A DNA stretch of 61,487 bases, counting the filler. It is 4 parts of 4 records of this genome, joined end to end, with 100 filler letters (N's around TTAATTAATTAA, not from the genome) between each part and the next. Parts side by side here need not be neighbours in the genome. Positions count along the whole stretch, not along the records: positions 37,837 to 53,096 come from SRR20825006_1023; 3 more parts are not named here. One strand, given 5' to 3'. Below, piece by piece: positions 37,870-55,317 of this stretch. The notes beneath the pieces are model-generated. The model was not told where the DNA came from. It ran no database searches and worked only from the letters and a program-made list of their open reading frames with translations. Both the position numbers and the translations under genes were made by a program. Numbering within the stretch: the stretch's first letter is position 1; each line of letters begins with the position of its first letter.

Positions 37870-38229
37870 TCAGCTCCCCCTGTAAGTCGCGTAACCGTAG
37901 GGAGACAGCAGCAAAGGCACATGAAAATGCTGGTCCGCATCCTCGATACCGAAGCGCAGCGGAATGGTGTCGAGGAACAGGGTGCCATCTCCGACATGGC
38001 CCGCCGATTTCAGATAATCGCCAGCATGGAAAAGCAACTCATAGACGCCGGGCGTAAAGCTTTCGCCTTGCGCCATCGGGCCGTCCGTGCGCCCGTCCGC
38101 GTTCGTCACCGCATGCGAGACAGGTTGCGGCACGCCACCGGTCAGCCGGAAAAGCTCGATCTTCAGCCCCGCCGCCGGTTTCCCTGCCGCCTGATCAAGC
38201 ACATGAGTCGTCAATCGTCCTGACGCCAT
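37870..38229 (-). CDS. uraH: 5-hydroxyisourate hydrolase
   Basis: LTTHVLD, TNADGR, HFHVPLLLSPYG, C-terminal YRGS. Confidence 0.96.
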   Translation of the reverse strand: MASGRLTTHVLDQAAGKPAAGLKIELFRLTGGVPQPVSHAVTNADGRTDGPMAQGESFTPGVYELLFHAGDYLKSAGHVGDGTLFLDTIPLRFGIEDADQHFHVPLLLSPYGYATYRGS

Positions 38230-38422
38230 AGCAAGTCTGCCCCTGTTTTGCCGGGTTGATCCCGGTTGCAGTCTTTGCACGACCGCGTTCTTTGACTGAA
38301 TTAGATTGTCTAGGAATTGTATATGAAAGGGGGCTTGTCATAAGACTCTTTCAAAATTTTGTTGAATGTCCGCCGGGCGGTTCTCTGGAACGATGGCGCC
38401 CGCAGGCATGAGAGGAAGAAGT

Positions 38423-39838
38423 ATGGGGACCTATCCGCGCGATCTTGAAGGCTATGGCCAGACCGTTCCGAATGCCGCCTGGCCGGGCGGTGCGAAGGTC
38501 GCGGTGCAGTTCGTCCTGAATTACGAGGAAGGCGGCGAAAACAACCTGCTGCACGGGGACGACGCCTCCGAAGCTTTCCTCTCGGAGATCGTCGGTGCCG
38601 CCGCCTGGCCAGGCCAGCGGCACTGGAATATGGAATCGATCTACGAATATGGCGCCCGGGCCGGGTTCTGGCGTCTGCACCGGCTGTTCACCGAGGCCGG
38701 CATCCCGCTCACTGTCTATGGCGTTGCCACGGCACTCGCACGTAGTCCGTCGCAGGTGAAGGCGATGCAGGAGGCCGACTGGGAGATTGCCTCGCACGGG
38801 CTCAAATGGATCGAGCACAAGGACATGACCGAGGCGGAGGAGCTGGCCCAGATCGTCGAAGCGATCCGCCTGCATGCCGAAGTCACCGGAGAGGCGCCGC
38901 GCGGCTGGTATACCGGCCGCTGCTCCATGAACACGGTCGGGCTCGTCGCCGCGCGGGGCGATTTCGACTACATCTCGGACAGCTATGCCGACGACCTGCC
39001 CTACTGGATGGAAGCGGGCGAGCACGATCAGCTGATCATTCCCTATACGCTCGACGCCAACGACATGCGGTTCGCAACACCGCAGGGCTTCAATACCGGC
39101 GAGCAGTTCTTCCAATATCTGAAAGACAGTTTCGACGGTCTCTACGCGGAAGGCGCAGCCGGTCGCCCGGCCATGATGTCCGTCGGCCTGCATTGCCGCC
39201 TCACCGGCCGGCCCGGACGGGCGGCAGGACTGAAGCGCTTCATCGAATACGCGCAATCCCATAGCGATGTCTGGTTTGCCCGCCGGATCGAGATCGCAGA
39301 GCACTGGAAAGCCAATTTCCCGCACAAGCGCTGGGAGCGGCCCGGCGCCATGTCCCGCGAACGGTTTGTCGAGTGCTTCGGCGGCATCTTTGAGAACTCT
39401 CCCTGGATTGCCGAGCAGGCCTTCGATCTGGAACGCGGCCCGGCGCACGACACGGCAACCGGCCTGCACAACGCTCTCACCCGGATCTTCCGCTCGGCCA
39501 GCGAAGCGGAACGACTGGGCGTCCTTAACGCCCATCCGGATCTCGCCGGAAAACTGGCGCAAGCCAAACGCCTGACCGAGAATTCCACATCAGAGCAGGC
39601 CAGCGCCGGACTGGACGCCCTGACCGACGCGGAACGGACCAGCTTCGAGGCGCTGAACGCGGAATATGTGGCCAAGCACGGCTTCCCGTTCATCATCGCC
39701 GTCCGCGATCATGACAAGGCGGGCATCCTCACTGCCTTTCAACGCCGCATCGGCAATGACCGGGAGACGGAAATAGCGGAAGCGTGCCGTCAGGTCGAAC
39801 GCATCACCGAGTTGAGATTGAAGGATCTGCTGCCATGA
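38423..39838 (+). CDS. puuE: Allantoinase PuuE fused to OHCU decarboxylase
   Basis: YPRDL.GYG, NYEEGGE, ESIYEYG, GLHCR.GRPGR; C-terminal UraD: FGGIFENSPW, AHPDLAG, SEQ.SAGL, FPFIIAV. Confidence 0.95.
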   Translation: MGTYPRDLEGYGQTVPNAAWPGGAKVAVQFVLNYEEGGENNLLHGDDASEAFLSEIVGAAAWPGQRHWNMESIYEYGARAGFWRLHRLFTEAGIPLTVYGVATALARSPSQVKAMQEADWEIASHGLKWIEHKDMTEAEELAQIVEAIRLHAEVTGEAPRGWYTGRCSMNTVGLVAARGDFDYISDSYADDLPYWMEAGEHDQLIIPYTLDANDMRFATPQGFNTGEQFFQYLKDSFDGLYAEGAAGRPAMMSVGLHCRLTGRPGRAAGLKRFIEYAQSHSDVWFARRIEIAEHWKANFPHKRWERPGAMSRERFVECFGGIFENSPWIAEQAFDLERGPAHDTATGLHNALTRIFRSASEAERLGVLNAHPDLAGKLAQAKRLTENSTSEQASAGLDALTDAERTSFEALNAEYVAKHGFPFIIAVRDHDKAGILTAFQRRIGNDRETEIAEACRQVERITELRLKDLLP

Positions 39839-40692
39839 GCACCAAAAAACAGGACGCAGGGTCCTACTTCGCCATCGAAGGCGGTCTGCCGGGCCAGCGC
39901 GAGCTGATGACCGGCCGAGCGGTCTTCACCGACGCCTATGCAGTGATCCCGAAGGGCGTGATGACCGATATTGTCGCCAGCCTGTTTCCGTTCTGGGAGA
40001 AGACCCGGGGCTGGATCATCGCCCGGCCGCTTTCCGGTTTCAGCGAAACTTTCTCGCACTATGTGATGGAAGTCGGCCCCGGCGGCGGCTCGGACAGACC
40101 GGAACCGGAAGCAGGCGCCGAAGGCGCGCTGTTCGTTGTCTCCGGCTCGGTCACCGTTACCGTCGGCGGGGCGGAGCATGTGCTTGAGCCGGGCGGTTTC
40201 GGCTTCCTGCCGCCGTCATCGGGCTGGACCCTGCGCAACCGGGGAAGCGAGACGGCAAAGTTTCACTGGGTCAGGAAGATGTACGAGGCCGTGGACGGGC
40301 TCGATACTCCTGAGCCGCTTTTCGCCAATGACCGGGACACCCCCCCCAATGCCATGCCCGATACCGAAGGCCGCTGGGCGACGAGCCGGTTCGTCGATCC
40401 AGAAGACCTGCGGCATGACATGCACATCACAGTCGTCACGTTCCAGCCGGGCGGCACCATTCCGTTCGAGGAAACCCACGTCATGGAGCACGGCCTCTAC
40501 GTGCTGCAGGGCAAGGGCGTCTACAAGCTGAACCAGGACTGGGTGGAGGTCGAGGCGGGTGACTATATGTGGCTGCGTGCCTTCTGCCCGCAGGCCTGCT
40601 ACGCGGCCGGGCCGGAGCCGTTCCGCTATCTGCTCTACAAGGACATGCACCGGCATCCGAAACTGACCGGTGTCGGCGGGTTCGGGCGATGA
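39835..40692 (+). CDS. allE: (S)-ureidoglycine aminohydrolase (bicupin, YlbA/AllE)
   Basis: RAVFTDAYAVIP, ETHVMEHGLYVL, FCPQAC, FRYLLYKD. Confidence 0.93.
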   Translation: MSTKKQDAGSYFAIEGGLPGQRELMTGRAVFTDAYAVIPKGVMTDIVASLFPFWEKTRGWIIARPLSGFSETFSHYVMEVGPGGGSDRPEPEAGAEGALFVVSGSVTVTVGGAEHVLEPGGFGFLPPSSGWTLRNRGSETAKFHWVRKMYEAVDGLDTPEPLFANDRDTPPNAMPDTEGRWATSRFVDPEDLRHDMHITVVTFQPGGTIPFEETHVMEHGLYVLQGKGVYKLNQDWVEVEAGDYMWLRAFCPQACYAAGPEPFRYLLYKDMHRHPKLTGVGGFGR

Positions 40693-41180
40693 GCCGAACT
40701 ATCAAGGCGCAGCCGTTGACGGCAGAGGCTTTCGCACCGTTCGGCGCCGTGCTGGAAGCGACGGGTACGCCAGACTTCATGATCAACGCCGGTCTCTGCG
40801 GCCGCCATCACGATCTCGCCCGTCCGGAGACGGATGCCGACGGCGCCGTAAGCCTGAGCGTCGGGCGCAGCGAGGCCGTCACCCTGCCGCTTTCCCTTGG
40901 TATGATGGAGCGGCACCCGCATGGCAGCCAAGCTTTCGTACCGATGGCGGGAACACAGTTTCTGATTATCGTCGCCAAAGATGAGGACGGCACACCCGGC
41001 ACGCCGCGTGCGTTCCTGACGAACGGCAATCAGGGTATCCAGTACAGGATGAATTGCTGGCATGGTGTCCTGGCGCCATTGGCAGGCCCCGCAGATTTCC
41101 TGATCGTCGACCGGGTTGGTCCCGGCGATAATCTGGAAGAGCATCACCTTGCCCAGCCCTACACAATCGTGACGGGCTGA
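40689..41180 (+). CDS. allA: Ureidoglycolate lyase
   Basis: PLTAEAFAPFG, MERHPHGSQAF, WHGVL, FLIVDR, DNLEE. Confidence 0.93.
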   Translation: MSRTIKAQPLTAEAFAPFGAVLEATGTPDFMINAGLCGRHHDLARPETDADGAVSLSVGRSEAVTLPLSLGMMERHPHGSQAFVPMAGTQFLIIVAKDEDGTPGTPRAFLTNGNQGIQYRMNCWHGVLAPLAGPADFLIVDRVGPGDNLEEHHLAQPYTIVTG

Positions 41181-41211
41181 GCCGGCAAGCGGGTACATCC
41201 CCCGGAAACAG

Positions 41212-41235
41212 AAATTGCCGCCAAAGCGGCAATTT
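41212..41235. terminator. Bidirectional terminator
   Basis: AAATTGCCGC-CAAA-GCGGCAATTT between convergent allA and XRE genes. Confidence 0.7.
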
Positions 41236-41286
41236 ACTCAAAGTGTTTGTTATTCAAAGTGCCGGGTTTTGGCCTGAAGCCAGTGG

Positions 41287-41829
41287 TTAGCTTCGGTCGT
41301 TATCCTGGCCTGGATCAGCCAGCTCCGACATGGTGCGCACCAGGTCGACGATGCGGGTCCGCGCATGTTCCGGCAGGTCACACCAGAGCCGGACAAGCTC
41401 ACTGGCCTGACGGCGTGCCAGCGGCGAGTCAATCTCGACATCATGAGAGCTGACCATTGGCGGCGCCATACCTTCGCCACCCAGCAACCGCGCCGGGGAC
41501 TGAGCTATCGTCTGCTCGTCCATCTCGTCGAAGAAGAAAGAAACCGGCGTATTCAGGACCGAGGCCACATCGAACAGACGCGATGCACTGATCCGGTTAT
41601 CGCCGCGTTCATATTTCATGTATTGCTGGGAGGTGACGCCGATCTTCTGCGCGACAATGCGCTGGGTCATCCCCATTTCCTTCCGGCGGCGGCGCAGACG
41701 AGCACCGACAAACACATCGACCGGATTGTTCGAGGTAGATGACTTGCCACGGTCCGCGACATCCTTATCCGTCGCCAACGTTGAGTCCTCAGACAGATCG
41801 TCAATCAGACGATTAGCCGCGTTCTTCAT
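41287..41829 (-). CDS. XRE-family HTH transcriptional regulator
   Basis: NPVDVFVGARLRRRR, GVTSQQYMKYERGDNRISASRL, PVSFFFD. Confidence 0.9.
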   Translation of the reverse strand: MKNAANRLIDDLSEDSTLATDKDVADRGKSSTSNNPVDVFVGARLRRRRKEMGMTQRIVAQKIGVTSQQYMKYERGDNRISASRLFDVASVLNTPVSFFFDEMDEQTIAQSPARLLGGEGMAPPMVSSHDVEIDSPLARRQASELVRLWCDLPEHARTRIVDLVRTMSELADPGQDNDRS

Positions 41830-42293
41830 ATCCTCACCCCCATGCCGTTTAGACGTCCCTGAATCAAAAGTCTGTATAGCTATAGCGACTATGCGGATCG
41901 GGGATGGCCCCTCTCAAGCTGAATCGCAGCGTCTAAAAGCGTTCTGCTGCGCCCGATCAGGCGCCGCCATTATGCGCATTGCCTTGCCGAAGCTTAGCGA
42001 CGCTGCCTTTATTGATTTGGGCAATTGGCGTTCAGATGCGCAACCATACAATATTGCGCCGTAACATTCAATTTTTACGTGGTCGTCATAGGTGAATTTT
42101 TATTAATATGCGCTATATTGTATTTTGCCGCCAAGCGGCTCTCAGAGCTGGTTTCTGAGCTTCACACAGATAAAATACGACATAAAAAACCACCGCCTCC
42201 ATCAACCATTGCGGGTCCATATAAGCCGCACGGTGAAAACTTGCAGATTACCAACACCCGGCCGACACTGAAGAGCGCCATTAAGGAACCGTC

Positions 42294-43415
42294 ATGCTCG
42301 TCGATATCGCCGTCATAGGAAATGGTCCGACCGCCCGCCTCGCCACCCACGCATTCCGCGATTGCGGGGAGGGTGTGGTGATGATCGGACCCGATGCCAA
42401 CCGGTCCGCCGACCCGCGCACCACAGCCCTGATGCCATCGAGCGTTGAATCACTGGATATGCTCGGCATCGATGTCCGCACGAGGGCAACCCCGCTTCTG
42501 GATCTTCGGATTGAGACAACCGGCCCGTTCGGAATTGTCTCGGAACTGTTCACTGCGGAAGATGCTGGCGAGGGTTTCCTGGCCCAGAACCTGTTCATTC
42601 GGGATCTGATGGATGTCATGCCCGATGTCCCGCAGCACAAAGCCACGGTAACCGGCGTTCAGCCCTCAGCGGACAGCGTCCGGATCGCAACGGATGACGG
42701 CAAGACGATAGAAGCCCGTCTGGTTATCGCCGCCGACGGCCTGCAATCCCTGGCCCGGGAAGCCGCTGGTATCAGAATGCGCAAAAAACCGCTCGGCCGG
42801 AGCGCGCTGTGCGTGCCGGTCCGGCTTGAACACCCGCACGAACGGCTCTGTATCGAGCGTTATGACGATACCGGCACGCTGACCCTGATCCCCGTCGCAG
42901 AGCATGACGCCTCCCTGATCACCATTGCTTCCCCGGATGAGATCGCCGCCCTCTCCGCGCATCCGGACGAAACCATCGAACGCAAGCTGACACGCCGTCA
43001 GGACACTTTCGGACGTATAGCCTTCACCGGTCCGAAAGCCGTCTTCCCCCTGGCACTCGGCTTCACGCCGCAACCCGCGCGGGACCGGGTCGTCGTCATC
43101 GGCGAGAGCGCGCATATCGCCCCTCCCATTGCCGCCCAGGGCTGGAACATGTCCGTGCGGGACATCATGACCTTGCGGTCGCTGCTGACAGAAGCCGCCA
43201 CCAAAGGCGAGGATATCGGCAGCCAGCAGGTGCTCGGCTCCTATGCCCCCCGCCGTCAGCCCGACGTCGCCGGGCGGCTGTCCGCCATAGGCGCCCTGGC
43301 TGGCGTCGCCACCCGCCCGTCCGGGCCGCAGAAACTGATCCGCCAGGCCGGGCTTGCCGCGATAGGCCGGTTCAGCGGATTGAAACGCGGCCTGATGCGC
43401 GCCGGCCTCAGATAA
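42294..43415 (+). CDS. UbiH/UbiL-family FAD-dependent hydroxylase
   Basis: IAVIGNGPTA, DPRTTAL, IAADG, IGESAHIAPPIAAQGWNMSVRD. Confidence 0.85.
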   Translation: MLVDIAVIGNGPTARLATHAFRDCGEGVVMIGPDANRSADPRTTALMPSSVESLDMLGIDVRTRATPLLDLRIETTGPFGIVSELFTAEDAGEGFLAQNLFIRDLMDVMPDVPQHKATVTGVQPSADSVRIATDDGKTIEARLVIAADGLQSLAREAAGIRMRKKPLGRSALCVPVRLEHPHERLCIERYDDTGTLTLIPVAEHDASLITIASPDEIAALSAHPDETIERKLTRRQDTFGRIAFTGPKAVFPLALGFTPQPARDRVVVIGESAHIAPPIAAQGWNMSVRDIMTLRSLLTEAATKGEDIGSQQVLGSYAPRRQPDVAGRLSAIGALAGVATRPSGPQKLIRQAGLAAIGRFSGLKRGLMRAGLR

Positions 43416-43417
43416 GA

Positions 43418-44071
43418 ATGCGAACGGCTCCCGCCGCTATACTGATACTGATCTATCTGCTGATGGCATCGACGGGCCCTGCCGTCGCCACAACGCAGCA
43501 GGATGCAACCCCGCCGCCGCCATTCTCCCATCTTGAATTCGGCATGAGTGCGCGCGCGGCCTCAAATGCCCTGCCACAGGCAAAGCGCCTGACACCCGGC
43601 GTCAATTTCGGCCATCTGAAAGGACGGCTGGTCATTCCGGAAATGGAGGCCTTCGGGTCCAGCTTCCGCGTTTACCTGCAGTTCGACTCTGCGGACACGC
43701 TGCGACAGATCCTGCTCGAACGGCGGCACGCGGCCGCGACAAGAAAAAGCGCCGGAAATATCCAGCGATACCTGACCAATGATCTGGGGGAGCCTGACGA
43801 GATCTGTCTGCCGCCCGTAGCCACACCTGCGGCGGCCCGGGTCACCTGGCGGAAGGAAAACTGGTCACTGCATCTGATCGGGTTTGACGACCTCGGCCTC
43901 GGCATCCGGACACAAGATGCCGACCGGGGCGACCCACTGGAGATAAAGCCTCTCGGCCGCAGCCGTGCCGAACGGTTGCGCAGCCGGCAGCAAAGTAGTC
44001 TGCCGCGCCGGATCCTTATCCGGATCCATGACGCGGATGACCAGACGCTAGAGCCGCCAGCCTGCGGCTAA
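43418..44071 (+). CDS. Hypothetical exported protein
   Basis: Hydrophobic N-terminal signal peptide; starts 2 nt after the ubiH-like stop; no family recognised. Confidence 0.7.
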   Translation: MRTAPAAILILIYLLMASTGPAVATTQQDATPPPPFSHLEFGMSARAASNALPQAKRLTPGVNFGHLKGRLVIPEMEAFGSSFRVYLQFDSADTLRQILLERRHAAATRKSAGNIQRYLTNDLGEPDEICLPPVATPAAARVTWRKENWSLHLIGFDDLGLGIRTQDADRGDPLEIKPLGRSRAERLRSRQQSSLPRRILIRIHDADDQTLEPPACG

Positions 44072-44351
44072 CGCCCAGTCTGCGACGACGCCAGGGAATC
44101 CCGGAAAATGACAGTGCGCTGCCGGACTTCGAGTCCGTCAGCGGCGCCGCACGCCGAGATATGCTCCCGCAAGGAAAGGTGAGCTTAACATTGTTCCAAC
44201 GCCTGCCGTGCCAAGACATGCCAATAAAACGCCATGAATCAAACATCCATCCACGGACATAAACAATATAACTGATAATTATTTATAATTTACTACCGCC
44301 AATCAACAAAAACTCACGAGATCGAAATTTTATTTGAATGTTTTGCTTTAA

Positions 44352-44440
44352 AAATATGACTATTCAGCGTCATATTTATGACCACCATTTTATCACGCCG
44401 CCGTGCATCGACTTGACAGCCTCGATGCCGGCAGTATGTC
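44352..44440 (+). promoter_or_regulatory. Palindromic sites and candidate sigma70 promoter of creatininase-ribD
   Basis: AAATATGAC-N8-GTCATATTT (44352-44377); TTGACA (44413) bracketed by GCATCGA/TCGATGC; TATGTC at 44435. Confidence 0.5.
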
Positions 44441-44482
44441 TTCGACCGACCACAGCAGCAAAAGCAACGGAAATTCAAAAGG

Positions 44483-45292
44483 ATGCCAATCAGGACGTGG
44501 GGTCATCTGACTACAGTTGATGTCGCAGCGCTCGATCCGGCGCGCGCCATTGCGGTGCTTCCCGTTGGTGCCGTCGAGCAGCACGGCCCGCACCTGCCAC
44601 TGGCGACCGACATCCTGATCAGCGAAGGCATTCTCGCGGCCGCGGCCGAACGGGTTGCGCCGGATATCGACCTGATCCGGCTCCCCTCCCAGTCCGTTGG
44701 CCTCAGCCCCGAACATATGAATTTCGCCGGTACGCTCTCGCATGAAGCCGAAACCCTGCTCGCTTCCTGGACCGAGATCGGCCTGTCCGTCGCTGCGGCC
44801 GGGCTGCGCAAAATGATCATCCTGAACAGCCATGGCGGCCAGCCCCAGATCGTCGATCTGGCGGTGCAGCGGCTGCGCAGCGAGGCAGGCATGCTGGCCG
44901 TGCGGGCGAACAGCTTCCGCTTCGACCTGCCGCCGGACCTGGTTGCCGAGGACGAACGGTCCTTCGGCCTGCATGGCGGCCAGATCGAAACCGCCCTGAT
45001 GCTGACGCTTCACCCGGACCTGGTACGCAAGGACAAGATCGCGAACTTTCCGAACAAGGCGGCAGACCGTGCCCTTACGGCAAAGCGCCTGGGGCTTTCC
45101 GGGGCCGGGGGCTATGCCTGGAATGCGGAGGATCTGAACCCGGAAGGAGCGACCGGCAATGCCAGTCTGGCAACGGCGGAACAGGGCGCAACCCTGCTCG
45201 CCGCCTATGCAGACCAGTTTGCGGAGCTGATCTCCGATGTTGTCGGCTGGCCGGTCAAAGACGGTGAAATAGTCGGGCACGGCCATGAATGA
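44483..45292 (+). CDS. Creatininase/FAPy-deformylase (ArfB/MftE-like) amidohydrolase
   Basis: PVGAVEQHGPHLPLATD, SPEH, NSHGG, HGGQIET. Confidence 0.92.
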   Translation: MPIRTWGHLTTVDVAALDPARAIAVLPVGAVEQHGPHLPLATDILISEGILAAAAERVAPDIDLIRLPSQSVGLSPEHMNFAGTLSHEAETLLASWTEIGLSVAAAGLRKMIILNSHGGQPQIVDLAVQRLRSEAGMLAVRANSFRFDLPPDLVAEDERSFGLHGGQIETALMLTLHPDLVRKDKIANFPNKAADRALTAKRLGLSGAGGYAWNAEDLNPEGATGNASLATAEQGATLLAAYADQFAELISDVVGWPVKDGEIVGHGHE

Positions 45293-46037
45293 TGAATGGC
45301 CCGATATTCTGGCCACACTCGGGAAAGACTGCGAGAAAGAGGCCGCACCGTCCCGGGACACAGCCGACATCCCCTGGCAGCTCTACCGCGATCTTGCCCG
45401 GGATTGCATGGAACGGCCGATCGTCATCGCCCAGATCGGGCAAAGTCTTGATGGACGGATCGCCACGGCCAGCGGGCATTCCCACTATATCAACGGTGCA
45501 GAAAGCCTCGACCATCTGCATCGGCTCCGGGCCATCGCCGATGCCGTGGTCGTCGGAGCCAACACGGCTGTGCTGGACAATCCCCGGCTGACGACACGGC
45601 GCGTCTCCGGGCCGAACCCGGTCCGTGTGGTGATCGATCCGAAAAGGCGTGTCCCGGCAGAGCATGCCCTGCTGTCGGAACCCGACGCCGAAACCTTGCT
45701 GGTAACCAGCCGCGATATTTCCGGCCTGCCGCCACACTGCTTCGCCATTGCTCCGGCAGACGATGCCGAACAGGTCTCGCCGGGCAGGCTTCTGGAACAG
45801 CTCCGCAACAGGGACCTGCGCACCATCCTTATCGAAGGCGGCGGGAATACGATTTCACGCTTCCTGAGCGCGGGGCTGATCGACCGGCTGCATATCGCCG
45901 TTGCCCCCATGCTGATCGGCTCCGGCCGCCCGGGGCTTGAGCTGCCGGAGATCGAAACACTCGCCGACGCACGGCGTTTCGAGGCCCGCACCTACAAACT
46001 CGGACAGGACACCCTGTTCGATTGCCGGCTCAACTGA
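45285..46037 (+). CDS. RibD C-terminal reductase-only protein (RibD2-like)
   Basis: AQIGQSLDGRIAT, HRLRA.ADAVVVGANT..DNPRLT, IEGGG, IAVAPMLIG; no deaminase HAE/PC motif. Confidence 0.9.
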   Translation: MNDEWPDILATLGKDCEKEAAPSRDTADIPWQLYRDLARDCMERPIVIAQIGQSLDGRIATASGHSHYINGAESLDHLHRLRAIADAVVVGANTAVLDNPRLTTRRVSGPNPVRVVIDPKRRVPAEHALLSEPDAETLLVTSRDISGLPPHCFAIAPADDAEQVSPGRLLEQLRNRDLRTILIEGGGNTISRFLSAGLIDRLHIAVAPMLIGSGRPGLELPEIETLADARRFEARTYKLGQDTLFDCRLN

Positions 46038-46839
46038 TCCGGGGCACGGCAAAGTGATCCCGATGGCCAACGCGGATCGTGGCTTCCGGCGCCGCGTATA
46101 GGGCTTCGGCCCAGGCCTCGAAATTACCGCTCCGCTCCGGCGCCATCTCGGACGCAGCCTCCACCCAGCCGCCGACAAGCTCGGACGCGCCCGGATCGCC
46201 CATTCCGACGATCCAGTCGCTCTCCCCGTCCTGCACATCATACGCTCGCGCGGCAAGACCGGCGGACAGTGCGCCAGACGCGTCAGGGCCCAGTGCCGGG
46301 CCGAACCCTTTGTCCTTCCGCTGATGCCGGTTGACCAGCTCCCTGACGGCCGCCAATGCCTCCTGGTCGGCACGCGCCTCTATCCGCCCGTCATAGGTCA
46401 GAACGGCAAGCAGGGCCGCCCCCTCGTCTGTCAGAACATCGAGCAAAGTGTCGAGCCAGTCCTGCGAGACCAGATCGAACAGCGCGGAGGCGGTAACGAG
46501 ATCAGCCCCGGCGATCAATTTTGCCAGATCGGCATGCGCCAGATCCGTTATCTCCCGAACCAGCGTATCCTCTGGTTTCAGACTGGCAGTCCGCTCTGCA
46601 GTGGTTAGCAATGCCTGATCATTATCGACCAGCATCCAGTCCACCGGCACCGGCAGAAGCGGCGCGAGGTGACGCTGGTTGTTCCCGTTCCCGGCCCCGA
46701 GATCGACGATCCGGAGGCGTTCTCCGGTCGATGCGCGTTTGCCGGCCCAGTCGGTCAGCGCATCCTGTACGGTCCTGTTCCGGGCCGGGGCATCCCAGGC
46801 CGCGCGGGCACTGAGCCAGGCGTCGGAAAATCCGCTCAC
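46030..46839 (-). CDS. Class I SAM-dependent methyltransferase-like protein
   Basis: FSDAWLSAR, IVDLGAGNG, LVDND, LVTASALFDLVS, HQRKDKGFGPALGP. Confidence 0.85.
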   Translation of the reverse strand: MSGFSDAWLSARAAWDAPARNRTVQDALTDWAGKRASTGERLRIVDLGAGNGNNQRHLAPLLPVPVDWMLVDNDQALLTTAERTASLKPEDTLVREITDLAHADLAKLIAGADLVTASALFDLVSQDWLDTLLDVLTDEGAALLAVLTYDGRIEARADQEALAAVRELVNRHQRKDKGFGPALGPDASGALSAGLAARAYDVQDGESDWIVGMGDPGASELVGGWVEAASEMAPERSGNFEAWAEALYAAPEATIRVGHRDHFAVPRIS

Positions 46840-47915
46840 TGCAGGATCACCCCGTCCACTGCCCTCTGGAATGCCGCCTTGGCCCTGCCCCAGTCAGACA
46901 GCTTGCCCGCCGCCGGGACAGAGCGTCCGGCCATCTGCACCCGCAGCTCACCCTTGCCAAGCACATCGCGCAAGGCTTCCGTCAACGCGGGCACGTCTCC
47001 CGCGGGCACCAGTTGCGCCGCTTCGCGAACAGCATCCGCAACCGCACCCTCATGGGTCGTCAGAACCGGCAGCCCGGCGGCGACAGCATCGGCAAGGGCC
47101 ATGCCGAACCCTTCATGGTGTGTCGCCGACAGAAACAGCCCTGCCGCGCCATGCATCCGGGCCAATTCTTCATCGGAAACCTCGCCATGCAACGTTACCC
47201 GCCCCGCCAGACCTAGCTCTCCGATCAGGCTGCTCAGCTCAGCCGCATGGGCTGCATCGTGGGCCGCGCCGACAATATCGAGCTGCCAGTCGAGATCGCG
47301 GCAATTGGCCAGCGCCCGCACCGCGCTCTCATGCCCCTTGCGCCGTGTCAGCGTGCCGACCGAGAGAATGCGCAGCGGCCCTTCCGCCGGGCGCCTTTCG
47401 ACTGACGACACCCAATCGGCAATACCAGGCTCGACCACATGAACGGTTGAGGGATGTACATCGAAATCAGCCAGCCTCTCCGCCGTGCGGCGGCTGGAGA
47501 CGACGATCCGCGCGACCTCTTTCAGCACGGCTTTCTCCGCCTGGAAGAAGGCCTCCGTCTCCCGCTCGGAGAGTCCGGTCTCATCCGCCAGCGGGTGATG
47601 GATCATGGCGATCACGTCGAGCCGGGGCGCATGCTGGGCGACAGCCTGGCCCAGCGCCGTCAGCGCCAGACCGTCGATCACGCAGCGCGCGCGGTCCGGC
47701 AACCCGGCCAGCACCGCCGCACCGGCGGCGATGTCGTAGGGCCGGGCCCTGGGGAAATCGCCTTCAATCTCATGCACGCCGCCCAACCTGCCGGAGGCAC
47801 GGAGACCGTCGACCATATGCCGGTCATAGATGAACCCGCCCGTCAGGGTATCGAGGGGACCCGGAACGATGAAATGGACGGGCGGCTCCGAGCCTTTGAA
47901 TGGATCGGCGCTCAC
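46836..47915 (-). CDS. Glycosyltransferase family 4
   Basis: [29 protein letters not shown]. Confidence 0.9.
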
Positions 47916-48310
47916 AGCATCCCCTCATAGGAAGCCCAGGCGATGTGGGATTCGTGCAGCGTCACCTTCATGGAATCGAGTTCCTTCGCCCCTTCGCCAA
48001 GCTCTCCGGCCGCAATCGCGCCCGCCATCCGGTCAAAGATATGCCGGGCCAGGAACTCGGTCGTCGTATTCTCTCCGGCGAATTCCGGCAGATCGTCCAG
48101 ATTGCGGTAGCCGAGCGGCTCCAGCACCGCCTTCAGCCGCTCCGACGCGGCGCCGATATCGACCACCAGATTATCCGCATCCAGCTCCGCACGGCGGAAT
48201 TCCACGTCGATCACGTATGTCGCGCCGTGCAGCCGCTGGGCCGGGCCGAAGGTTTCGGAATTGAAGCTGTGCGCGATCATCACATGGTCGCGGACGGTGA
48301 GTGCGTACAT
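47912..48310 (-). CDS. COG0720 6-pyruvoyl-tetrahydropterin synthase-like protein, PTPS-IV type
   Basis: [45 protein letters not shown]; no Cys and HGA instead of HGH. Confidence 0.88.
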
Positions 48311-48323
48311 TGAAATACTCCGG

Positions 48324-49322
48324 TCAGTCAGAATAACGGATGCGATGGCAAAGGGTTTCCGGCGCTCCGGCGACAAGCCCCGCCAGAACTTCCGGCAGGG
48401 CCTCGAAGGGGCTCTCGTCGGTGATGAGAATGTCGAGCGCGGGATCGTCCAGCAGGGTCAGCGCCTCGGCCAGACGCTCGGCGTGCCGCGCCAGGTCCCG
48501 CCGGGATGGTGCCACGGCACCAACCTGGGAGGCCTGGATTGTCAGACGCTGGGAATGGAAGGCGCCGCCCAATGGCAGGGAAACTTCGCGGTCCCCGAAC
48601 CAGCTCAGCTCAAGAATGGTCGCTTCGAAGGCCGCGAGGTCGAGCGCCGTGCGCAAACCGGCCTCGGTCGCGCTGGCATGAAAGATCAGGCTGAATTTTT
48701 CCGGGTGTGCGCCAGCTTCCGCATAATGGAGGCCAAGCTGCCCGGCCACCGTTTTCCGGCTTTCCACCGGATCGAACACCCAGACTTCCGCCGCCCAGAA
48801 CCGGCGGGCAAGATATCCGGTCAGCAAACCGACCATGCCGCCGCCGACGACGGCGATCTGGCCTGTGCGCGCAGCTTCCGCATCCCAGACCGCATTCAAC
48901 GCCGTTTCCATATTCGCAGCCAGCACGGCCCGCTCCGGCGTCACGCCTTCCGGGATCGGAATAGCGGCGGCGGCGGGCAGCACGAAACGGGTCTGATGCG
49001 GGTAAAGCGCGAAGATCAGGGAGCCGGGCTTCAGCGCGGAGCCACTGACCACACGCGCAACAGCGGCATAGCCATATTTCACCGCCCCCGGGAACGGCCC
49101 TTCCTGAAATGGACACGCCATGCGTTCCCATTCGGAGGCAGGTACACCGCCCCGGAAAACAAGGCTCTCCGTGCCCTTGCTGACGGCGGAATAGACGGTT
49201 TCCGCCAGCACCTCGTCCGGCCTTGGCGCGGCAAGCCGGACCTCCCGGATCTCGCCCCGGCCATCGCCGAGGGACCAGAACGCCTGCGCGCCGTTGCTGC
49301 CAGCCTTATCCTGCCCGATCAT
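48324..49322 (-). CDS. MDR-superfamily (zinc-ADH fold) dehydrogenase
   Basis: [56 protein letters not shown]; the usual Zn-ligand Cys/His motifs are not visible. Confidence 0.85.
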
Positions 49323-49440
49323 TTCCGCCTCATTGGAAGACGCACAAACCCTACCGGTGAAGGCCTAGTCCGTTGTGCTTCCGAGCGCAGCAAAAACTAT
49401 CGTGAGCGTGATGTTTTCGAGCTCTTCCCTACCCCAAAAC

Positions 49441-49527
49441 CGTCATCCCGCACTTGATGTGGTTCCCAGGGAACGAAGGGCGATGTTCTACGATCATCTG
49501 GGTCCCGGCTCTCCAGCCGGAATGACG
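49441..49527. repeat. CGTC-type REP inverted dimer (degenerate)
   Basis: CGTCATCCCGCAC...CCCAG ... CTGGGTCCCGGCTCTCCAGCCGGAATGACG. Confidence 0.7.
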
Positions 49528-49555
49528 AAGATGGATGGCCAGACGGGATATCGAT

Positions 49556-50086
49556 CTAAAACTTCTTGAGTCTCAGGCGAACTTTCAGATCCACAGGTGG
49601 AAATGAAACCAGATCGGCAGCATCAAAGACAACTTCAATTGGCACAAGCTGGTGCGATGTCCATTCGATCGCCTGCTGCCGATTGGCCGCAGCAACTTCC
49701 ATAGCAAGCGTACAATGCGGCACCCAATTTCCGGGCCTATAATGCTCGCGACAGGATTCAGGCTCCAAATGCCGGTGAATCTCTCCATGAAGCGCAACTA
49801 AATCATTAGAGCAAGATGGAGCGGCCCAGACCACGAGAGGGTCAGCATCAAAATAACAGAGACGATCAAAAGTCAGATGCACACAGGCCCGTTCCCGGAA
49901 TACAGACTGGACGATATCTCCGACCTCATTGGCTTCTATGTCATCCCATACGGCGAAAGTGATATGGGGCGGGTAATTGAGCCGTGACATTGTCGGCTCA
50001 TCCTCCAGCAAACCAAAATCATGCCAGAGCTGACGCACACGATCCGCGCTTCTGTTGTTCGCAGAAAGAGAAATCGCGTACGCCAT
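49556..50086 (-). CDS. 2H phosphoesterase (2'-5' RNA ligase family)
   Basis: Two HxT motifs: PPHITF and WVPHCTL. Confidence 0.85.
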   Translation of the reverse strand: MAYAISLSANNRSADRVRQLWHDFGLLEDEPTMSRLNYPPHITFAVWDDIEANEVGDIVQSVFRERACVHLTFDRLCYFDADPLVVWAAPSCSNDLVALHGEIHRHLEPESCREHYRPGNWVPHCTLAMEVAAANRQQAIEWTSHQLVPIEVVFDAADLVSFPPVDLKVRLRLKKF

Positions 50087-50119
50087 CAGTGACACACCTC
50101 AATTTGGGACAAGGTAACT

Positions 50120-51061
50120 TTATACCTCCGAAGCCTCCGGCAAACGCGCTTCCACACCGGTCAGCTTTTCATAGGCCTTGATCACCGCCGTACAGCTTTC
50201 ATCCTCGAACCCCATGATGGAGGCCAGTGCGTAGGTCTGGTGCACGGACTCGGCCATGAAACCCGGCAGCCCGGCCTGTTCCAGCCACTGCGCGTAATAG
50301 CGGACATCCTTCTGCGCGTTAGCAAGCGACATCAGCGGGGTGAAGTCGCGCTTCAGGGTGGCTTCACCGTAGAGATCCATCATGCCGGACTTGCCGCCCG
50401 CAGCGGAGATGATGCCGATCACCTTGTCCATGTCGAGCCCTTCCCGGGCGGCGAGCGCGAAGCCCTCGCACCAGGAGGCGACATTGGCGAAGGCGATGTA
50501 ATTGTGGATCAGCTTCAGCCGGACCGCATGACCGGCGGGGCCGACATGGAAGATGTTCTCGGCATAGGTCTCGAACAGCGGGCGCAACCGCTCCAGCAGA
50601 TCCCCGGAGCCGCCGAACAGGATATTAACCTCGCCCCGGTCCGCGTGCACCGGCGTCCGTGTCATCGGCGCCTCGCAATAGGCGATGTTGAGCGCGGCGC
50701 AGGCCTCACGCATCCTGTCCACATGATCGGGCGAGACCGTGGTGTGATCGAGGAAGACCGCCCCCTCGCGCATATGGGAGAGCAGACCGTCCGGCCCGAG
50801 CGCGAGTTTCTGGACCGCCTCCGCCGTGGTGATGCAGATGCCGAGCACATCTGCCCCGGCCGCCATTGCCGCCAGATCCGACTCGGCGCGGGCACCCTGC
50901 GAGACGGCCAGCGCCACCGCTTCCGAGTCGAGATCATGGACCGCGACCGTGGCGCCTCCAACCAGCATGTTCTTCACAACCCCGCGGCCCATGCCGCCGA
51001 GGCCGATGAAGCCGACGGAGAAATCCGTTGCCGTTTCTGTGCCCGTATCGTTTCCGCTCAT
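50120..51061 (-). CDS. Beta-hydroxyacid dehydrogenase (3-hydroxyisobutyrate dehydrogenase family)
   Basis: GFIGLGGMG, DHTTVSP, EAPM, KLIHN, QKDVRY. Confidence 0.9.
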   Translation of the reverse strand: MSGNDTGTETATDFSVGFIGLGGMGRGVVKNMLVGGATVAVHDLDSEAVALAVSQGARAESDLAAMAAGADVLGICITTAEAVQKLALGPDGLLSHMREGAVFLDHTTVSPDHVDRMREACAALNIAYCEAPMTRTPVHADRGEVNILFGGSGDLLERLRPLFETYAENIFHVGPAGHAVRLKLIHNYIAFANVASWCEGFALAAREGLDMDKVIGIISAAGGKSGMMDLYGEATLKRDFTPLMSLANAQKDVRYYAQWLEQAGLPGFMAESVHQTYALASIMGFEDESCTAVIKAYEKLTGVEARLPEASEV

Positions 51062-51185
51062 GTCCCGCCCTCCTGCTACGATCGATCTTGTCGACTTGCC
51101 GGAAGAGTGCCGGATTTTTGCTACATTATTAAGGTGTTATTCCGTTTTGATGGCGCTAAAGCGTTCTTGCGGCACGCCCCCTCAC

Positions 51186-51267
51186 CGTCATTCCCGCGAA
51201 GGCGGGAACCCAGGGATCATAGAGTTGTATTCGTCATCCCTGGGTCCCTGCTTTCGCAGGGATGACG
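51186..51267. repeat. CGTC-type REP inverted dimer
   Basis: CGTCATTCCCGCGAAGGCGGGAACCCAGGGAT...ATCCCTGGGTCCCTGCTTTCGCAGGGATGACG. Confidence 0.85.
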
Positions 51268-51293
51268 ATCAGAGAAAATGATGTGCAGAAATC

Positions 51294-51321
51294 AAAAAGG
51301 GCCGGTCGAACCGGCCCTTTT
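51294..51321. terminator. Rho-independent terminator after peroxiredoxin
   Basis: AAAAAGGGCCGGT-CGA-ACCGGCCCTTTT. Confidence 0.85.
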
Positions 51322-51338
51322 CCCAAAATGGTCAGCCC

Positions 51339-51974
51339 TTACGCGCCCGGCTGATCGACCACCCGGAGATAGGGGCGCTGCTCGTCCCAGCCGCCCGGAA
51401 ACAGCTTCTTCGCATCGTCGTTCGACAGAGCCGGGACGATGATGCACTTGTCGCCGCTGGTCCAGTTCACCGGCGTGGCCACCTTGTGCTTGTCGGTCAG
51501 CTGCAGGGAATCGACCACGCGCAGGATCTCGTCGAAATTCCGTCCGGTGCTGGCCGGATAGGTCAGGATCAGACGGACTTTCTTGTTGCCGTCGATGACA
51601 AAGACAGAGCGCACCGTCAGCGTGTCGTTCGCGTTCGGGTGGATCATATCGTAGAGACCGGCCACCGTCTTGTCGTGGTCCGCCACCAGCGGGAAGTTCA
51701 GGTTGTTGCCCTGGGTCTGCTTGATGTCGTCGGCCCATTTTTCGTGGTCGCCGAGACCGTCGACGGAAAGGCCGAGCACCTTGACTCCGCGCTTGTCGAA
51801 TTCCGGCTTCAGACCGGCCATGTAGCCGAGCTCGGTGGTGCAGACCGGGGTGAAATCTTTCGGATGCGAGAACAGGATGACCCAGTTATCGCCCGCATAA
51901 TCATAGAAGTTGATCTTGCCGTCCGTGGAATCCTGCGTGAAATCAGGCGCTATATCGCCAAGCCGGATGGTCAT
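51339..51974 (-). CDS. 1-Cys peroxiredoxin (Prx6 type)
   Basis: FSHPKDFTPVCTTE, TVRSVF, YPASTGRNFDEILR, ATPVNW. Confidence 0.96.
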   Translation of the reverse strand: MTIRLGDIAPDFTQDSTDGKINFYDYAGDNWVILFSHPKDFTPVCTTELGYMAGLKPEFDKRGVKVLGLSVDGLGDHEKWADDIKQTQGNNLNFPLVADHDKTVAGLYDMIHPNANDTLTVRSVFVIDGNKKVRLILTYPASTGRNFDEILRVVDSLQLTDKHKVATPVNWTSGDKCIIVPALSNDDAKKLFPGGWDEQRPYLRVVDQPGA

Positions 51975-52112
51975 GGCCTTCTCCTCCTGGTTTGATCTTT
52001 TGAAGTCGTCCGCCTCCCTCCCGGGGAATGCGCGAGCGACGGCACTATAAGCGCAAGCGGGGCCGGGCGAAACCGCCACGACCCCGCTTTTAACCTTAAA
52101 CCCGATGCCGGA

Positions 52113-53096: not shown

Positions 53097-53196
53097 NNNN
53101 NNNNNNNNNNNNNNNNNNNNNNNNNNNNNNNNNNNNNNNNTTAATTAATTAANNNNNNNNNNNNNNNNNNNNNNNNNNNNNNNNNNNNNNNNNNNN
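53097..53196. other. Artificial contig linker
   Basis: N44-TTAATTAATTAA-N44. Confidence 0.99.
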
Positions 53197-55317
53197 GTCA
53201 AGACGATGCGAAAGTTCCTCCCAGGCGGGGGCGCTTGTTATCGATTGTTCGCTCCCCAGGACTTCGATTTCCGGAATCCACCATGACGCCGTCCCGCCCA
53301 TGCGCAGTTTCAGCGCAAGGTCGAGCCCCTTTTCCGACGGGCCAATATAGCCACGAGTAAAACCGTTTATGTCTTCGAATGCCTTGCGCGGCATGACGCA
53401 ACATTCCGGGGTTCCGGCACTGACTTCGGTCGGTTCGGCATCGGCCAGAACGGCACGCGGATAACCGACATAACGATCCGACAAATACTGCCCGTCGACA
53501 TCGCCCTCGATCCAGGTGCCTGCCCAACGGACGGAATCATCTTCAAACAGGATCGTCGGACAGACGACGCATTTGCTGCCGCGTTTGCGATAAGCCGCCA
53601 GCAATGGCTCGAACCAGCCTGTGTCGTGTGGCAGGATGTGTGCTGACACCAACGCGATTGTTTCGGAATTCGTTGCAGCAACGCCAACCTCAAGCGCGTC
53701 GCAGAAATCCTCGACGCCCTCGGCAAAAACGATGCGGACATTAAGTTTATAAAAGGCCGCCAGCCTCATCATGTCGCTGCCGACCTGATCAAAACTTTCG
53801 GCGGGGCCTGCTATCACAATCGGCAGATGGCGCGTGACCTCATCAAGGCCAAGCAAGGCAATAGTCACACCGATATCGCTAATCGTGTCGTCAACACCAA
53901 CGATCAGGGTAACTGGCGCGTCTTCATCGAAATTGCCGATATCATGGGTATCGATGGCAAACGGGCTTTGCGCCGTCATGTTCTGCAACATCGGGCCAAA
54001 CTGTCGTTCGATGCTGTTTGATGCCGTAACCGAACGCGGATCAAGGGACGGCAGAACCCGCGACAATGCCTGTCGCGCCGACGCACGGGTCGGGTTTAGC
54101 GGGCAATAGGCCGGGAACGCGTCGGATATGGCCAGTTCCAGATAAACCGGCTGATCGGATGACGGTGTATCTTCCAGCGGACAGAACACCAGAAAACCAT
54201 GGCTGTTACGTGCCGGGTTAAGCCCCGAAAACATCGGATCGTTCAGAAATGCATTGGTAACGTCGGGCCGTGACTGCCGGGTCCAGCGATCATCAATCCG
54301 AACCGCTTCACCGCCAACGCGCAACATGACGGTTTCAACCGCACGATCAGGGTCAAGCATCCAGCCCGATACCAGAATGCCACTGCCTTCTATCACCAGC
54401 GAAAAGTCGATCCCGATCCGCACCGGACGATCCAGTTCGGAAACAGTATCGCGACCGTCAAAGCGATGGGCTGCCATCCGGATTTGCGCAAGGATGTTAT
54501 CGGGCGCCTTTACCCGATCCAGAACAGAACGGATATGCGCAGGCACATCTTGCAAGGCAACCAGCACGCGCTGCTGATAAACCTCGATCGAGAACCAGCC
54601 ATCACGACCACGGAAATAAACGCGCTGCAACTTGCTCGGATTGATCCTGGTGTCGCCAGCCATAAGCCCGGTAACGCCCGATGCATGTTCACCAAGATCA
54701 TCGCGTTGAAATTCAGCACTGGTCAGTTCGGCAAGAACCGGGCCTTCGTCTATCGCGATCACGCGGGTGCGGCCGGTCGGGAAATTGCTCGACCAGCCCT
54801 GAATGTAAATATCGCCTTCTTCCAGACCGCCCAGAACTTCGATAAAGCCGTTGCTTCGTGCAGCAATCCGGACAAGGGCAGCCACAGTGCGCAAACGCTT
54901 CTTGTTCGGGTTGCCGGCCAGAAGCGCCTCGATAACGCCGTCAATCACGGTCGCGAATGCCGACCCGGATTGCTCGGCCACGGCAGATAGAATGGATTCA
55001 AGTCCCTGCGAGCGGCTTTCAATCCGATATTCGCCGGGCTGTCCCGGTGCCTTGAACAGGGCCGTTTTCAATCGGCGTTGCGATACATTCTGCATCGGCA
55101 GAAGTGCGACAAAACCAAAAGCAGCCTCGGGTGGGCCATCGGCACGACGCCAACTGATGATTGATGCCTGAACCTTGGCATCAGATTGACCGTTCAGGAA
55201 TACATCGATTGTCGCGGGCATCGCAGCACCGACACCCGCCATAAGCGCAAGCCCGTCATCGACCAAAGCGGCCACAACGGTCCTGCCGTCCAGCGGCATT
55301 CCAGACGGTTCAGTCAT
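53197..55317 (-). CDS. WgeF/ExpE6-like protein with degenerate C-terminal GT2 fold, 3' truncated
   Basis: C-terminus aligns by eye with the GT2 domain of 58382-60634 (ILFEDDSVRWAG, INGFTRGY, DLALKLR); sixth gene of a wge-like order. Confidence 0.7.

Follow-up and report, generated by a model that had tools for sequence, protein, structure and literature searches.

A six-gene PTPS-IV cluster of Nisaea as a candidate membrane-less form of an orphan pathway to a GTP-derived metabolite

A 61,487-nucleotide stretch of DNA originating from a marine species of Nisaea (Alphaproteobacteria), hereafter called the window at its full length, was analyzed computationally for a six-gene cluster at positions 44483-49322 (record SRR20825006_1023) that is built around a T-fold protein of the PTPS-IV type. 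With a probability of roughly 0.6, the six genes are considered to be one functional unit, a membrane-less "core plus feeder" form of the orphan PTPS-IV (SCO6650-type) pathway, which would proceed along the route outlined below to a soluble product in Nisaea. The original prediction for this cluster had proposed a route from ring-opened GTP to a glycosylated and methylated cofactor or envelope modification. A glycosylated, methylated metabolite derived from GTP is plausible from the gene content, while neither its order of steps nor an envelope role in Nisaea is supported.

Six open reading frames (ORFs) occupy 44483-49322, two on the plus strand and four on the minus strand. The plus strand encodes a creatininase-family metal amidohydrolase of 269 aa (44483..45292; PF02633, 225.7 bits) and a stand-alone RibD_C pyrimidine reductase paralogue with an ORF of 250 aa (45285..46037; PF01872, 146.3 bits). 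Transcription of the minus strand would read, in order, a zinc-less MDR-fold dehydrogenase of 332 aa (48324..49322; assigned from an AlphaFold model and Foldseek), the PTPS-IV T-fold protein of 132 aa counted from an ATG (47912..48310; PF01242, 86.4 bits), a GT4 (GT-B) glycosyltransferase of 359 aa with a GTG start (46836..47915; PF00534, 92.2 bits) and a class I S-adenosylmethionine (SAM) methyltransferase of 269 aa, also with a GTG start (46030..46839; SAM motif and a Methyltransf_12 match of 24.5 bits). The PTPS ORF itself extends to 48376, where it opens at a TTG, and its orthologues start at the ATG at 48310. All six genes of the original prediction were therefore recovered as ORFs in their places and with matching families, and its description of tight packing with overlapping starts and stops also holds: the creatininase and RibD_C genes overlap by 8 nt, the RibD_C and methyltransferase genes by 8 nt at their convergent 3' ends, and the methyltransferase/GT4 and GT4/PTPS pairs by 4 nt each, with a gap of 13 nt between the MDR and PTPS genes if the ATG is taken as the PTPS start. 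The window PTPS shares 99% identity with its N. nitritireducens counterpart, and across the whole block protein identity to a metagenome-assembled genome (MAG) of an uncultured Nisaea is 89-99%.

Synteny was assessed in the best 80 loci of at least 512 relatives of the PTPS protein (at least 600 matched contig stretches), the other genes being sought in them by tblastn with coverage of at least 50% and E <= 1e-8; contig ends truncate 34 of the 80, and absences are therefore over-counted. The loci span Proteobacteria, Actinobacteria, Acidobacteriota, Myxococcota, Gemmatimonadota and a haloarchaeal MAG. The MDR gene was found near PTPS-IV in 78 of them, GT4 in 69, the methyltransferase in 58, RibD_C (1.9 kb from PTPS-IV in the window) in 53 and the creatininase in 23. 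The genes flanking the cluster in the window, which encode an FAD monooxygenase, a 217-aa ORF, a 2H phosphoesterase, an HIBADH-like protein, a peroxiredoxin and a GST, recur in at most 6 of the 80 loci and in Nisaea only. The conservation of the six-gene block is far beyond chance.

The phyletic pattern across 63 genomes of the order to which Nisaea belongs is sharper still in its agreement between the genes. PTPS-IV is present in 40 of these genomes, and the same 40 hold the MDR gene, always next to PTPS-IV, as well as the methyltransferase and the cluster-type RibD_C (at least 48% identity). GT4 occurs in at least 39 of the 40, the exception (G048) having a 1.07-kb gap between PTPS and the methyltransferase, and a close creatininase (at least 43% identity, one copy split) in 34. 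None of the six cluster genes was found in the 23 PTPS-IV-negative genomes of the order, where only canonical RibD-like matches (32-36% identity) and a distant creatininase type (28-36%) were encountered. Fisher tests on this pattern gave p values of 1e-17 and 5e-12, to be read with the genomes being related and not independent trials. In G012 and G043-G051 the creatininase-RibD_C pair lies 0.8-4.4 Mb from the MDR-PTPS-GT4-methyltransferase operon, or on another contig, and co-occurrence thus outlasts the unlinking of the pair. Co-occurrence across genomes, on which the original prediction had been made to depend, is accordingly seen in both sets (80 loci; 40 of 63 genomes).

Natural fusions join the same genes. 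A search among proteins of at least 232 aa gave 326 of 1716 candidates matching PTPS-IV at E <= 1e-10, and precomputed Pfam assignments for the 120 of these matches listed showed ADH_zinc_N together with PTPS in 12 and Glycos_transf_1 together with PTPS in 20. A Pfam scan of 12 of these proteins resolved their architectures into MDR-PTPS fusions (P0137, P0219), tandem PTPS domains with a C-terminal MDR (three domains in P0122, two in P0150), a PTPS-GT4 protein with 230 residues before the PTPS domain that carry only a faint DAO dinucleotide-binding match (P0178), a PTPS-GT4-methyltransferase fusion (P0237), a PTPS-GT4-flippase-like fusion (P0240), a nucleotidyltransferase-PTPS fusion (P0144), PTPS with a Glyco_transf_4 domain only (P0227), PTPS with a weak dinucleotide-binding match (P0233) and PTPS domains only (P0154, P0124). 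As a separate observation, two or three PTPS-IV domains follow one another in the metagenomic proteins P0122, P0150, P0154 and P0124 (about 41-45% identity to the window PTPS), which amounts to a T-fold trimer in one chain; in some of these tandem proteins the C-terminal MDR lies about 900 residues downstream, with middle parts that have no Pfam family.

The PTPS-IV assignment itself is well founded. PF01242 is matched at 86.4 bits against a cut-off of 22.4, and S. coelicolor SCO6650 (PDB 3D7J) aligns over residues 1-130 with E 9.3e-52 (E 2.4e-71 by profile search). The motif FGPAQ, described as the PTPS-IV signature that replaces CxxxHGH (PMC5445326), is found in the window translation, so that the type given in the original prediction is borne out by both motif and structure match. 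Among 49 PTPS-IV sequences, F21, G22, P23 and A24 are invariant and Q25 is kept in at least 90%. A profile alignment with E. coli QueD (PDB 4NTK), using the residue roles that we take to apply to QueD (catalytic Cys, zinc ligands, Asp-His relay), places Ala at catalytic Cys27, Ala at the third zinc ligand His33 and Gly-Tyr at the Asp70-His71 relay, and only the equivalents of His16 and His31 remain of the zinc ligands. The earlier description of the protein as "Cys-less" was correct and understated, a zinc ligand and the Asp-His relay being lost as well. Judged by these substitutions, the window PTPS-IV cannot work as PTPS or QueD does. In the 49 sequences, which come from several phyla, 32 positions are nevertheless invariant, including H14, H28, E85, E120 and H122; PTPS-IV is thus strongly selected and has probably retained some specific binding function. 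In T-fold enzymes a conserved Glu anchors the 2-amino-4-oxopyrimidine ring, and E120 may be the equivalent residue.

The creatininase-like protein belongs clearly to PF02633 (225.7 bits against a cut-off of 31.3), and the metal-binding motifs that we presume to define the family are kept. It fell short of the models for the mycofactocin peptidase MftE (TIGR03964; 112.8 bits against 172), for creatininase proper (88.1 against 235) and for ArfB (NF033501; 20.7 against 180), and no BrbF family was among its matches in the NCBIfam scan. Each of three Nisaea genomes has this gene as its sole creatininase-family member. By its family, the protein is a candidate deformylase of AFRPP (ring-opened GTP), or else another small amide or lactam hydrolase. 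One report describes BrbF (S. meliloti SMc02977, B. abortus Bab2_0247) as an AFRPP formamidase by experiment that is required for riboflavin synthesis, was initially annotated as creatininase and has homologues in three clades (PMC9478397), which supplies a bacterial precedent for the creatininase-family deformylation of ring-opened GTP in the original prediction. The window protein resembles BrbF in family, and both BrbF and the archaeal ArfB free formate from ring-opened GTP; it differs from them in that its type follows PTPS-IV and not riboflavin synthesis.

The RibD_C protein scored 153.3 against the cut-off of 150.15 for TIGR00227, and apart from the RibD_C domain model no curated NCBIfam model was over its cut-off for any of the six proteins. 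The domain begins at about residue 45, with no deaminase domain, and translation may in fact begin at Met 42. A bifunctional RibD was rejected (TIGR00326; 123.8 against 156.35, reductase domain only). The nearest solved relatives are the archaeal-type 2,5-diamino-6-ribosylamino-pyrimidinone 5'-phosphate reductases 6P8C (E 9.3e-31) and 2AZN. Reductases of this archaeal and fungal type likewise stand alone and act before deamination; the window protein departs from them in scoring 110.2 against the TIGR01508 equivalog cut-off of 186.45, and in being a second copy besides a complete RibD, a 371-aa ORF in the separate rib operon of Nisaea. From the RibD_C paralogue, the separate full RibD and the precedent of a creatininase-family deformylase, we infer a link of the cluster to GTP.

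GTP cyclohydrolase II (PF00925) accompanies PTPS-IV in 24 of the 80 loci. At the position of E. coli Tyr105, the cluster-linked cyclohydrolases carry Tyr in all ten loci without creatininase, whereas the 14 loci with creatininase have His in nine, Met in one and Tyr in four (p 6e-4). The neighbourhood of SCO6650 presumably reaches a GTP cyclohydrolase II paralogue, SCO6655; SCO6655 reportedly has Met at the Tyr105 site, is said to halt at the formylated product and to release it. A Streptomyces locus (L055) and other actinobacterial loci share the MDR, GT4, methyltransferase, RibD_C and creatininase genes with the window, and the Nisaea cluster differs from the SCO6650 neighbourhood in having no cyclohydrolase paralogue, CDP-alcohol transferase, flippase-like or LtaS/EptA-like gene. 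The RibA paralogue that the original prediction had associated with such clusters was not found in the 61-kb window, and the only intact cyclohydrolase II of Nisaea is an unlinked, Tyr-type protein with a degenerate DHBP-synthase-like N-domain, present in 60 of the 63 genomes of the order and therefore regarded as housekeeping. It aligns over its full length with the cluster-linked copies of other proteobacteria. The rib-operon RibB of Nisaea, with an intact DHBP synthase, is fused to a degenerate cyclohydrolase domain without zinc cysteines, and the Nisaea genomes encode two complementary half-degenerate RibBA-like proteins (L082:736-2076 and L086:778-2010).

The MDR protein is recognized mainly by its fold. 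ADH_zinc_N was matched at 19.3 bits against a cut-off of 31.8, a sequence search of the PDB gave no match, and its 120 listed homologues carry generic names such as "zinc-binding alcohol dehydrogenase" or BchC-like; an identity as BchC was rejected (TIGR01202; 50.9 bits against 291.25). The AlphaFold (AF2) model (pLDDT 92.3) is retrieved by Foldseek with threonine, sorbitol, idonate and butanediol dehydrogenases and with TarJ at TM 0.71-0.77 and 12-18% identity. G160, G162 and G165 of the Rossmann GxGxxG motif and D184 are invariant, which denotes a Rossmann site with the acidic residue typical of NAD and not NADP, and the protein is probably NAD-dependent. The family has no Cys/His/Glu zinc triad, S48-x-G50-x-E52 and G84-Y85-A standing where we take the MDR zinc ligands to be expected (placed without a superposition). 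TarJ, a ribulose-5-phosphate reductase, has the top target-normalised TM to the model (0.77), and the natural fusion P0144 joins an IspD/TarI-like nucleotidyltransferase to PTPS-IV; TarJ and TarI make CDP-ribitol. The resemblance to TarJ is at fold level only, with an identity of 12-13%, and TarJ is a zinc enzyme while the window MDR has no zinc ligands; nor does the window cluster have a cytidylyltransferase comparable to TarI. By analogy, these likenesses hint that the redox step concerns C2 of a chain resembling ribitol-5-phosphate.

The glycosyltransferase matched PF00534 (Glycos_transf_1) at 92.2 bits against a cut-off of 26.4, and its nearest solved sequences are MshA of mycothiol synthesis (7QSG, E 2.5e-14; also 3C4Q/3C48) and the Tll1590 protein (6KIH), which we take to be a sucrose-phosphate synthase. 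It is not MshA proper (57.3 bits against an equivalog cut-off of 462.5). Since these nearest relatives glycosylate phosphorylated polyols or sugars, a small phosphorylated polyol is suggested as acceptor. Pterin glycosides offer a comparison, being GTP-derived heterocycles on whose polyol side chain a sugar is placed by a GT-B enzyme (Chlorobium tepidum CtPGT; PMC5683033). That route employs GTP cyclohydrolase I, a Cys-bearing PTPS and sepiapterin reductase, whereas the T-fold protein of the window has lost the catalytic set and its feeder enzymes come from the riboflavin branch. Cyanopterin contains O-methylated sugars. The methyltransferase bears the glycine-rich SAM motif VDLGAGNG, with Methyltransf_12 (24.5 bits, cut-off 30) and Methyltransf_25 (21.9 bits) both under cut-off. 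A defence system was set aside, as PADLOC yielded nothing but a weak methyltransferase match.

It could be contended that PTPS-IV serves the F420, queuosine, folate or biopterin pathway and that its neighbours are incidental. A review does give PTPS-IV a role in F420 synthesis, as unpublished work (PMC5041015); PTPS-IV is the sole PTPS-family gene in the three Nisaea genomes, and QueC is present in two of them. CofH and CofE were each found in none of the three, with positive controls in three archaea (methanogens and Haloferax), which speaks against an F420 role in Nisaea. QueE was likewise found in none, the same model being positive in nine control genomes; with no QueE and QueC standing alone, a de novo queuosine pathway that PTPS-IV could serve is lacking, and the single-contig Nisaea genome has the cluster without QueC. 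FolE is found in Nisaea, hence no bypass is needed and replacement of a missing GTP cyclohydrolase I is rejected. Considering also that PTPS-IV no longer has the catalytic Cys, the Asp-His relay or one of the zinc ligands, service to any of these known pathways is highly improbable. As for the orphan QueC (E 1e-65), it lies beside an RlmN-like radical SAM gene in G001 and G002 (L113-L115) and is not found in G003. Another conception is that two unrelated units merely abut, the creatininase-RibD_C pair being a BrbF-like branch of riboflavin synthesis and the MDR-PTPS-GT4-methyltransferase operon acting on a non-GTP substrate such as a sugar or polyol phosphate. The creatininase-family AFRPP formamidase for riboflavin in another alphaproteobacterium (BrbF; PMC9478397) would agree with this, as would the position of the pair on the opposite strand with its own upstream region, its creatininase being the only one in the Nisaea genomes, its distance from the PTPS operon in G012 and G043-G051 and the occurrence of creatininase near just 23 of the 80 loci. 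The RibD_C type is nevertheless in 40 of 40 PTPS-IV-positive and 0 of 23 negative genomes, and the close creatininase in 34 of 40 against 0 of 23; both track the accessory cluster, and riboflavin enzymes should not behave so. Moreover, the rib operon of Nisaea already supplies a full RibD, an intact GTP cyclohydrolase II of the Tyr type is encoded as well, and clusters of other phyla contain RibD_C, creatininase and cyclohydrolase arranged in several ways, which makes two independent units quite unlikely.

The remaining alternative concerns where the pathway ends, and bears on the partners that the cluster has elsewhere. When the ORFs of the 80 loci were clustered and representatives scanned against Pfam, a CDP-alcohol phosphatidyltransferase was found in 40 loci, a membrane-anchored sulfatase-family protein in 38, an LPG_synthase_TM (flippase-like) protein in 34 and an FkbM methyltransferase in 11; none of these families was over a curated NCBIfam cut-off, except for a generic FkbM-family domain model. 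Among the 42 non-Nisaea loci with full 10-kb flanks, one or more of the three membrane genes accompany 35, and seven are without any. The sulfatase-family protein gave no match in a sequence search of the PDB, and its model (pLDDT 72, catalytic domain mostly above 85) is most like LtaP/LtaS, EptA/MCR-1 and GacH, at moderate target-normalised TM values of 0.39-0.58. LtaS/EptA/GacH-type enzymes shift phospho-head groups from phospholipids to envelope acceptors, and the pathway of most phyla thus appears to lead to a lipid and from there to the envelope. A product of Nisaea that also ends on a membrane lipid or envelope polymer, through unlinked or generic enzymes, would be in keeping with these figures and with the stand-alone LPG_synthase_TM proteins elsewhere in the Nisaea genomes. 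Such an ending is doubtful in view of the gene content. CDP-alcohol transferase, flippase-like, sulfatase-family and FkbM genes were not found in the window; the three Nisaea genomes hold only two PF01066 genes, neither like the cluster-type CDP-alcohol transferase, which occurs in 2 of the 63 genomes of the order against 40 with the core; the sulfatase-family protein was not found in the three genomes with one query; and no LPG_synthase_TM protein of Nisaea exceeds 64 bits in comparison with the cluster type, where the within-family median is 128. The envelope modification entertained in the original prediction is therefore unlikely here. As the core is kept without the membrane module, its product is most simply soluble, and in Nisaea it probably is. 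In seven actinobacterial loci (L007, L036-L038, L063, L065 and L078), a conserved 136-aa ORF without Pfam or NCBIfam match ("u26") was noticed between the CDP-alcohol transferase and RibD_C genes.

For the six genes read as one functional unit, the following route is proposed; the chemistry in it is conjectural throughout, the observed facts being that the genes are inherited together and that PTPS-IV has lost its catalytic residues. The unlinked housekeeping GTP cyclohydrolase II would open GTP to an early pyrimidine nucleotide of the riboflavin pathway, and the creatininase-family enzyme would deformylate any formylated form as BrbF and ArfB do, in a step suggested by family precedent and dispensable. 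By its family and nearest structures, the deaminase-less RibD_C protein may turn the ribosyl group into a ribityl group with the 2-amino group retained, whereby the intermediate would be drawn out of riboflavin synthesis; the pathway most probably branches off riboflavin synthesis before deamination. More speculatively, the NAD-type zinc-less MDR protein could oxidise a secondary hydroxyl of the ribityl-phosphate chain together with PTPS-IV, which might hold the 2-amino-4-oxopyrimidine ring or carry out a different ring closure or tautomerisation. The MshA-like GT4 would, by its family, put a sugar on the phosphorylated polyol and the SAM enzyme would methylate the product. In Nisaea the outcome would probably be a soluble metabolite, pyrimidine- or pterin-like and both glycosylated and methylated. 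The CDP-alcohol transferase/flippase-like/LtaS/EptA-like module of most other phyla appears to make a phospholipid head group of it, to be passed on to the envelope. A more specific version, rather unlikely at present, is a bypass of GTP cyclohydrolase I in which reduction by RibD_C is followed by re-oxidation at C2' by the MDR protein and closure onto the 5-amino group on PTPS-IV, giving a neopterin-phosphate-like or related heterocycle before sugar and methyl are added; if true, RibD_C reduction and C2' oxidation would stand in for the Amadori step of GTP cyclohydrolase I.

Several observations weigh against reading the six genes as one GTP-fed unit, the review's F420 claim among them. With all of its family's catalytic residues lost, PTPS-IV may be something other than an enzyme, and the Pfam matches of the methyltransferase and MDR proteins lie under curated cut-offs. 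The only pointers to GTP as the origin are the associated RibD_C, creatininase and cyclohydrolase II genes, of which RibD_C is missing near 27 of the 80 loci and cyclohydrolase near 56, while the creatininase type is missing from 6 of the 40 PTPS-IV-positive genomes and is thus dispensable. The correlation of His or Met with creatininase derives from a few actinobacterial lineages, and four proteobacterial-type loci break the pattern. Since the Nisaea cyclohydrolase keeps its Tyr and is housekeeping, there is no known source of a formylated substrate for the creatininase, as in S. meliloti. Given the 4-nt overlaps between the genes, some of the metagenomic fusions may furthermore be artefacts of frameshifting.

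The cluster type is already known as an orphan, PF00925 and PF01872 being listed as PTPS-IV neighbours (PMC5445326), and the window provides one more member. A literature search, with subscription journals mostly outside its coverage, returned no paper naming the product, in accordance with the original prediction. The exact co-inheritance of the core with a RibD_C paralogue, the membrane-less form as a rule across a whole order, the cyclohydrolase residue-versus-creatininase pattern and the natural fusions of cluster genes are what the present analysis contributes. The PTPS-IV/SCO6650 cluster has been noticed for years in hundreds of species across phyla and is among the larger gaps around GTP-derived cofactors. 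Nisaea has its shortest complete version, limited to six genes and free of both a membrane module and a dedicated cyclohydrolase, and type strains with the cluster are kept in a public culture collection (N. denitrificans DSM 18348 and N. nitritireducens DSM 19540); a short version with a soluble product in culturable type strains makes the question more tractable, and the co-inheritance of RibD_C (40 of 40 against 0 of 23) indicates where the substrate is to be sought. If the more specific version with a bypass of GTP cyclohydrolase I is true, the product would be a soluble cofactor, pigment or protectant in Nisaea and, in most other phyla, the head group of a previously unknown phospholipid that is moved to the envelope.

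The cluster is bordered on the left by an AT-rich intergenic region upstream of the plus-strand pair (44072..44482) and on the right by a 233-nt spacer upstream of the MDR gene (49323..49555, minus strand), which is presumed to be the promoter region of the four-gene operon. A promoter scan gave one promoter-like site per strand at 44260-44306, two sites against 0.9 +/- 0.9 in shuffled sequences and hence not above chance, and no consensus promoter in 49323..49555; a terminator scan was likewise not above shuffles. The G+C content is 0.60-0.66 over 38001-52000, with a peak of 0.659 at 46001-48000, and mostly 0.52-0.58 in the rest of the window apart from a second high stretch of 0.61-0.62 at 28-32 kb; the stretch at 38001-52000 may be local variation or an acquired block. 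Farther out, a 722-aa ORF on the minus strand (53149-55317) has a weak GT2 match in its C-terminal third (21.7 bits, below cut-off). A gene of the 2H phosphoesterase superfamily (49556-50095, minus strand) separates the MDR gene from the HIBADH-like gene. Apart from the window it is present in a single Nisaea locus (1 of 80 loci), and it is therefore regarded as a recent insertion beside the upstream region of the operon. Just upstream of the cluster, 42294-44071 on the plus strand encodes an FAD-dependent monooxygenase (PF01494) and the overlapping 217-aa ORF without Pfam match; the two are conserved at this position in each of the five Nisaea loci and in no other of the 80, and could be a genus-specific tailoring pair or unrelated to the cluster.

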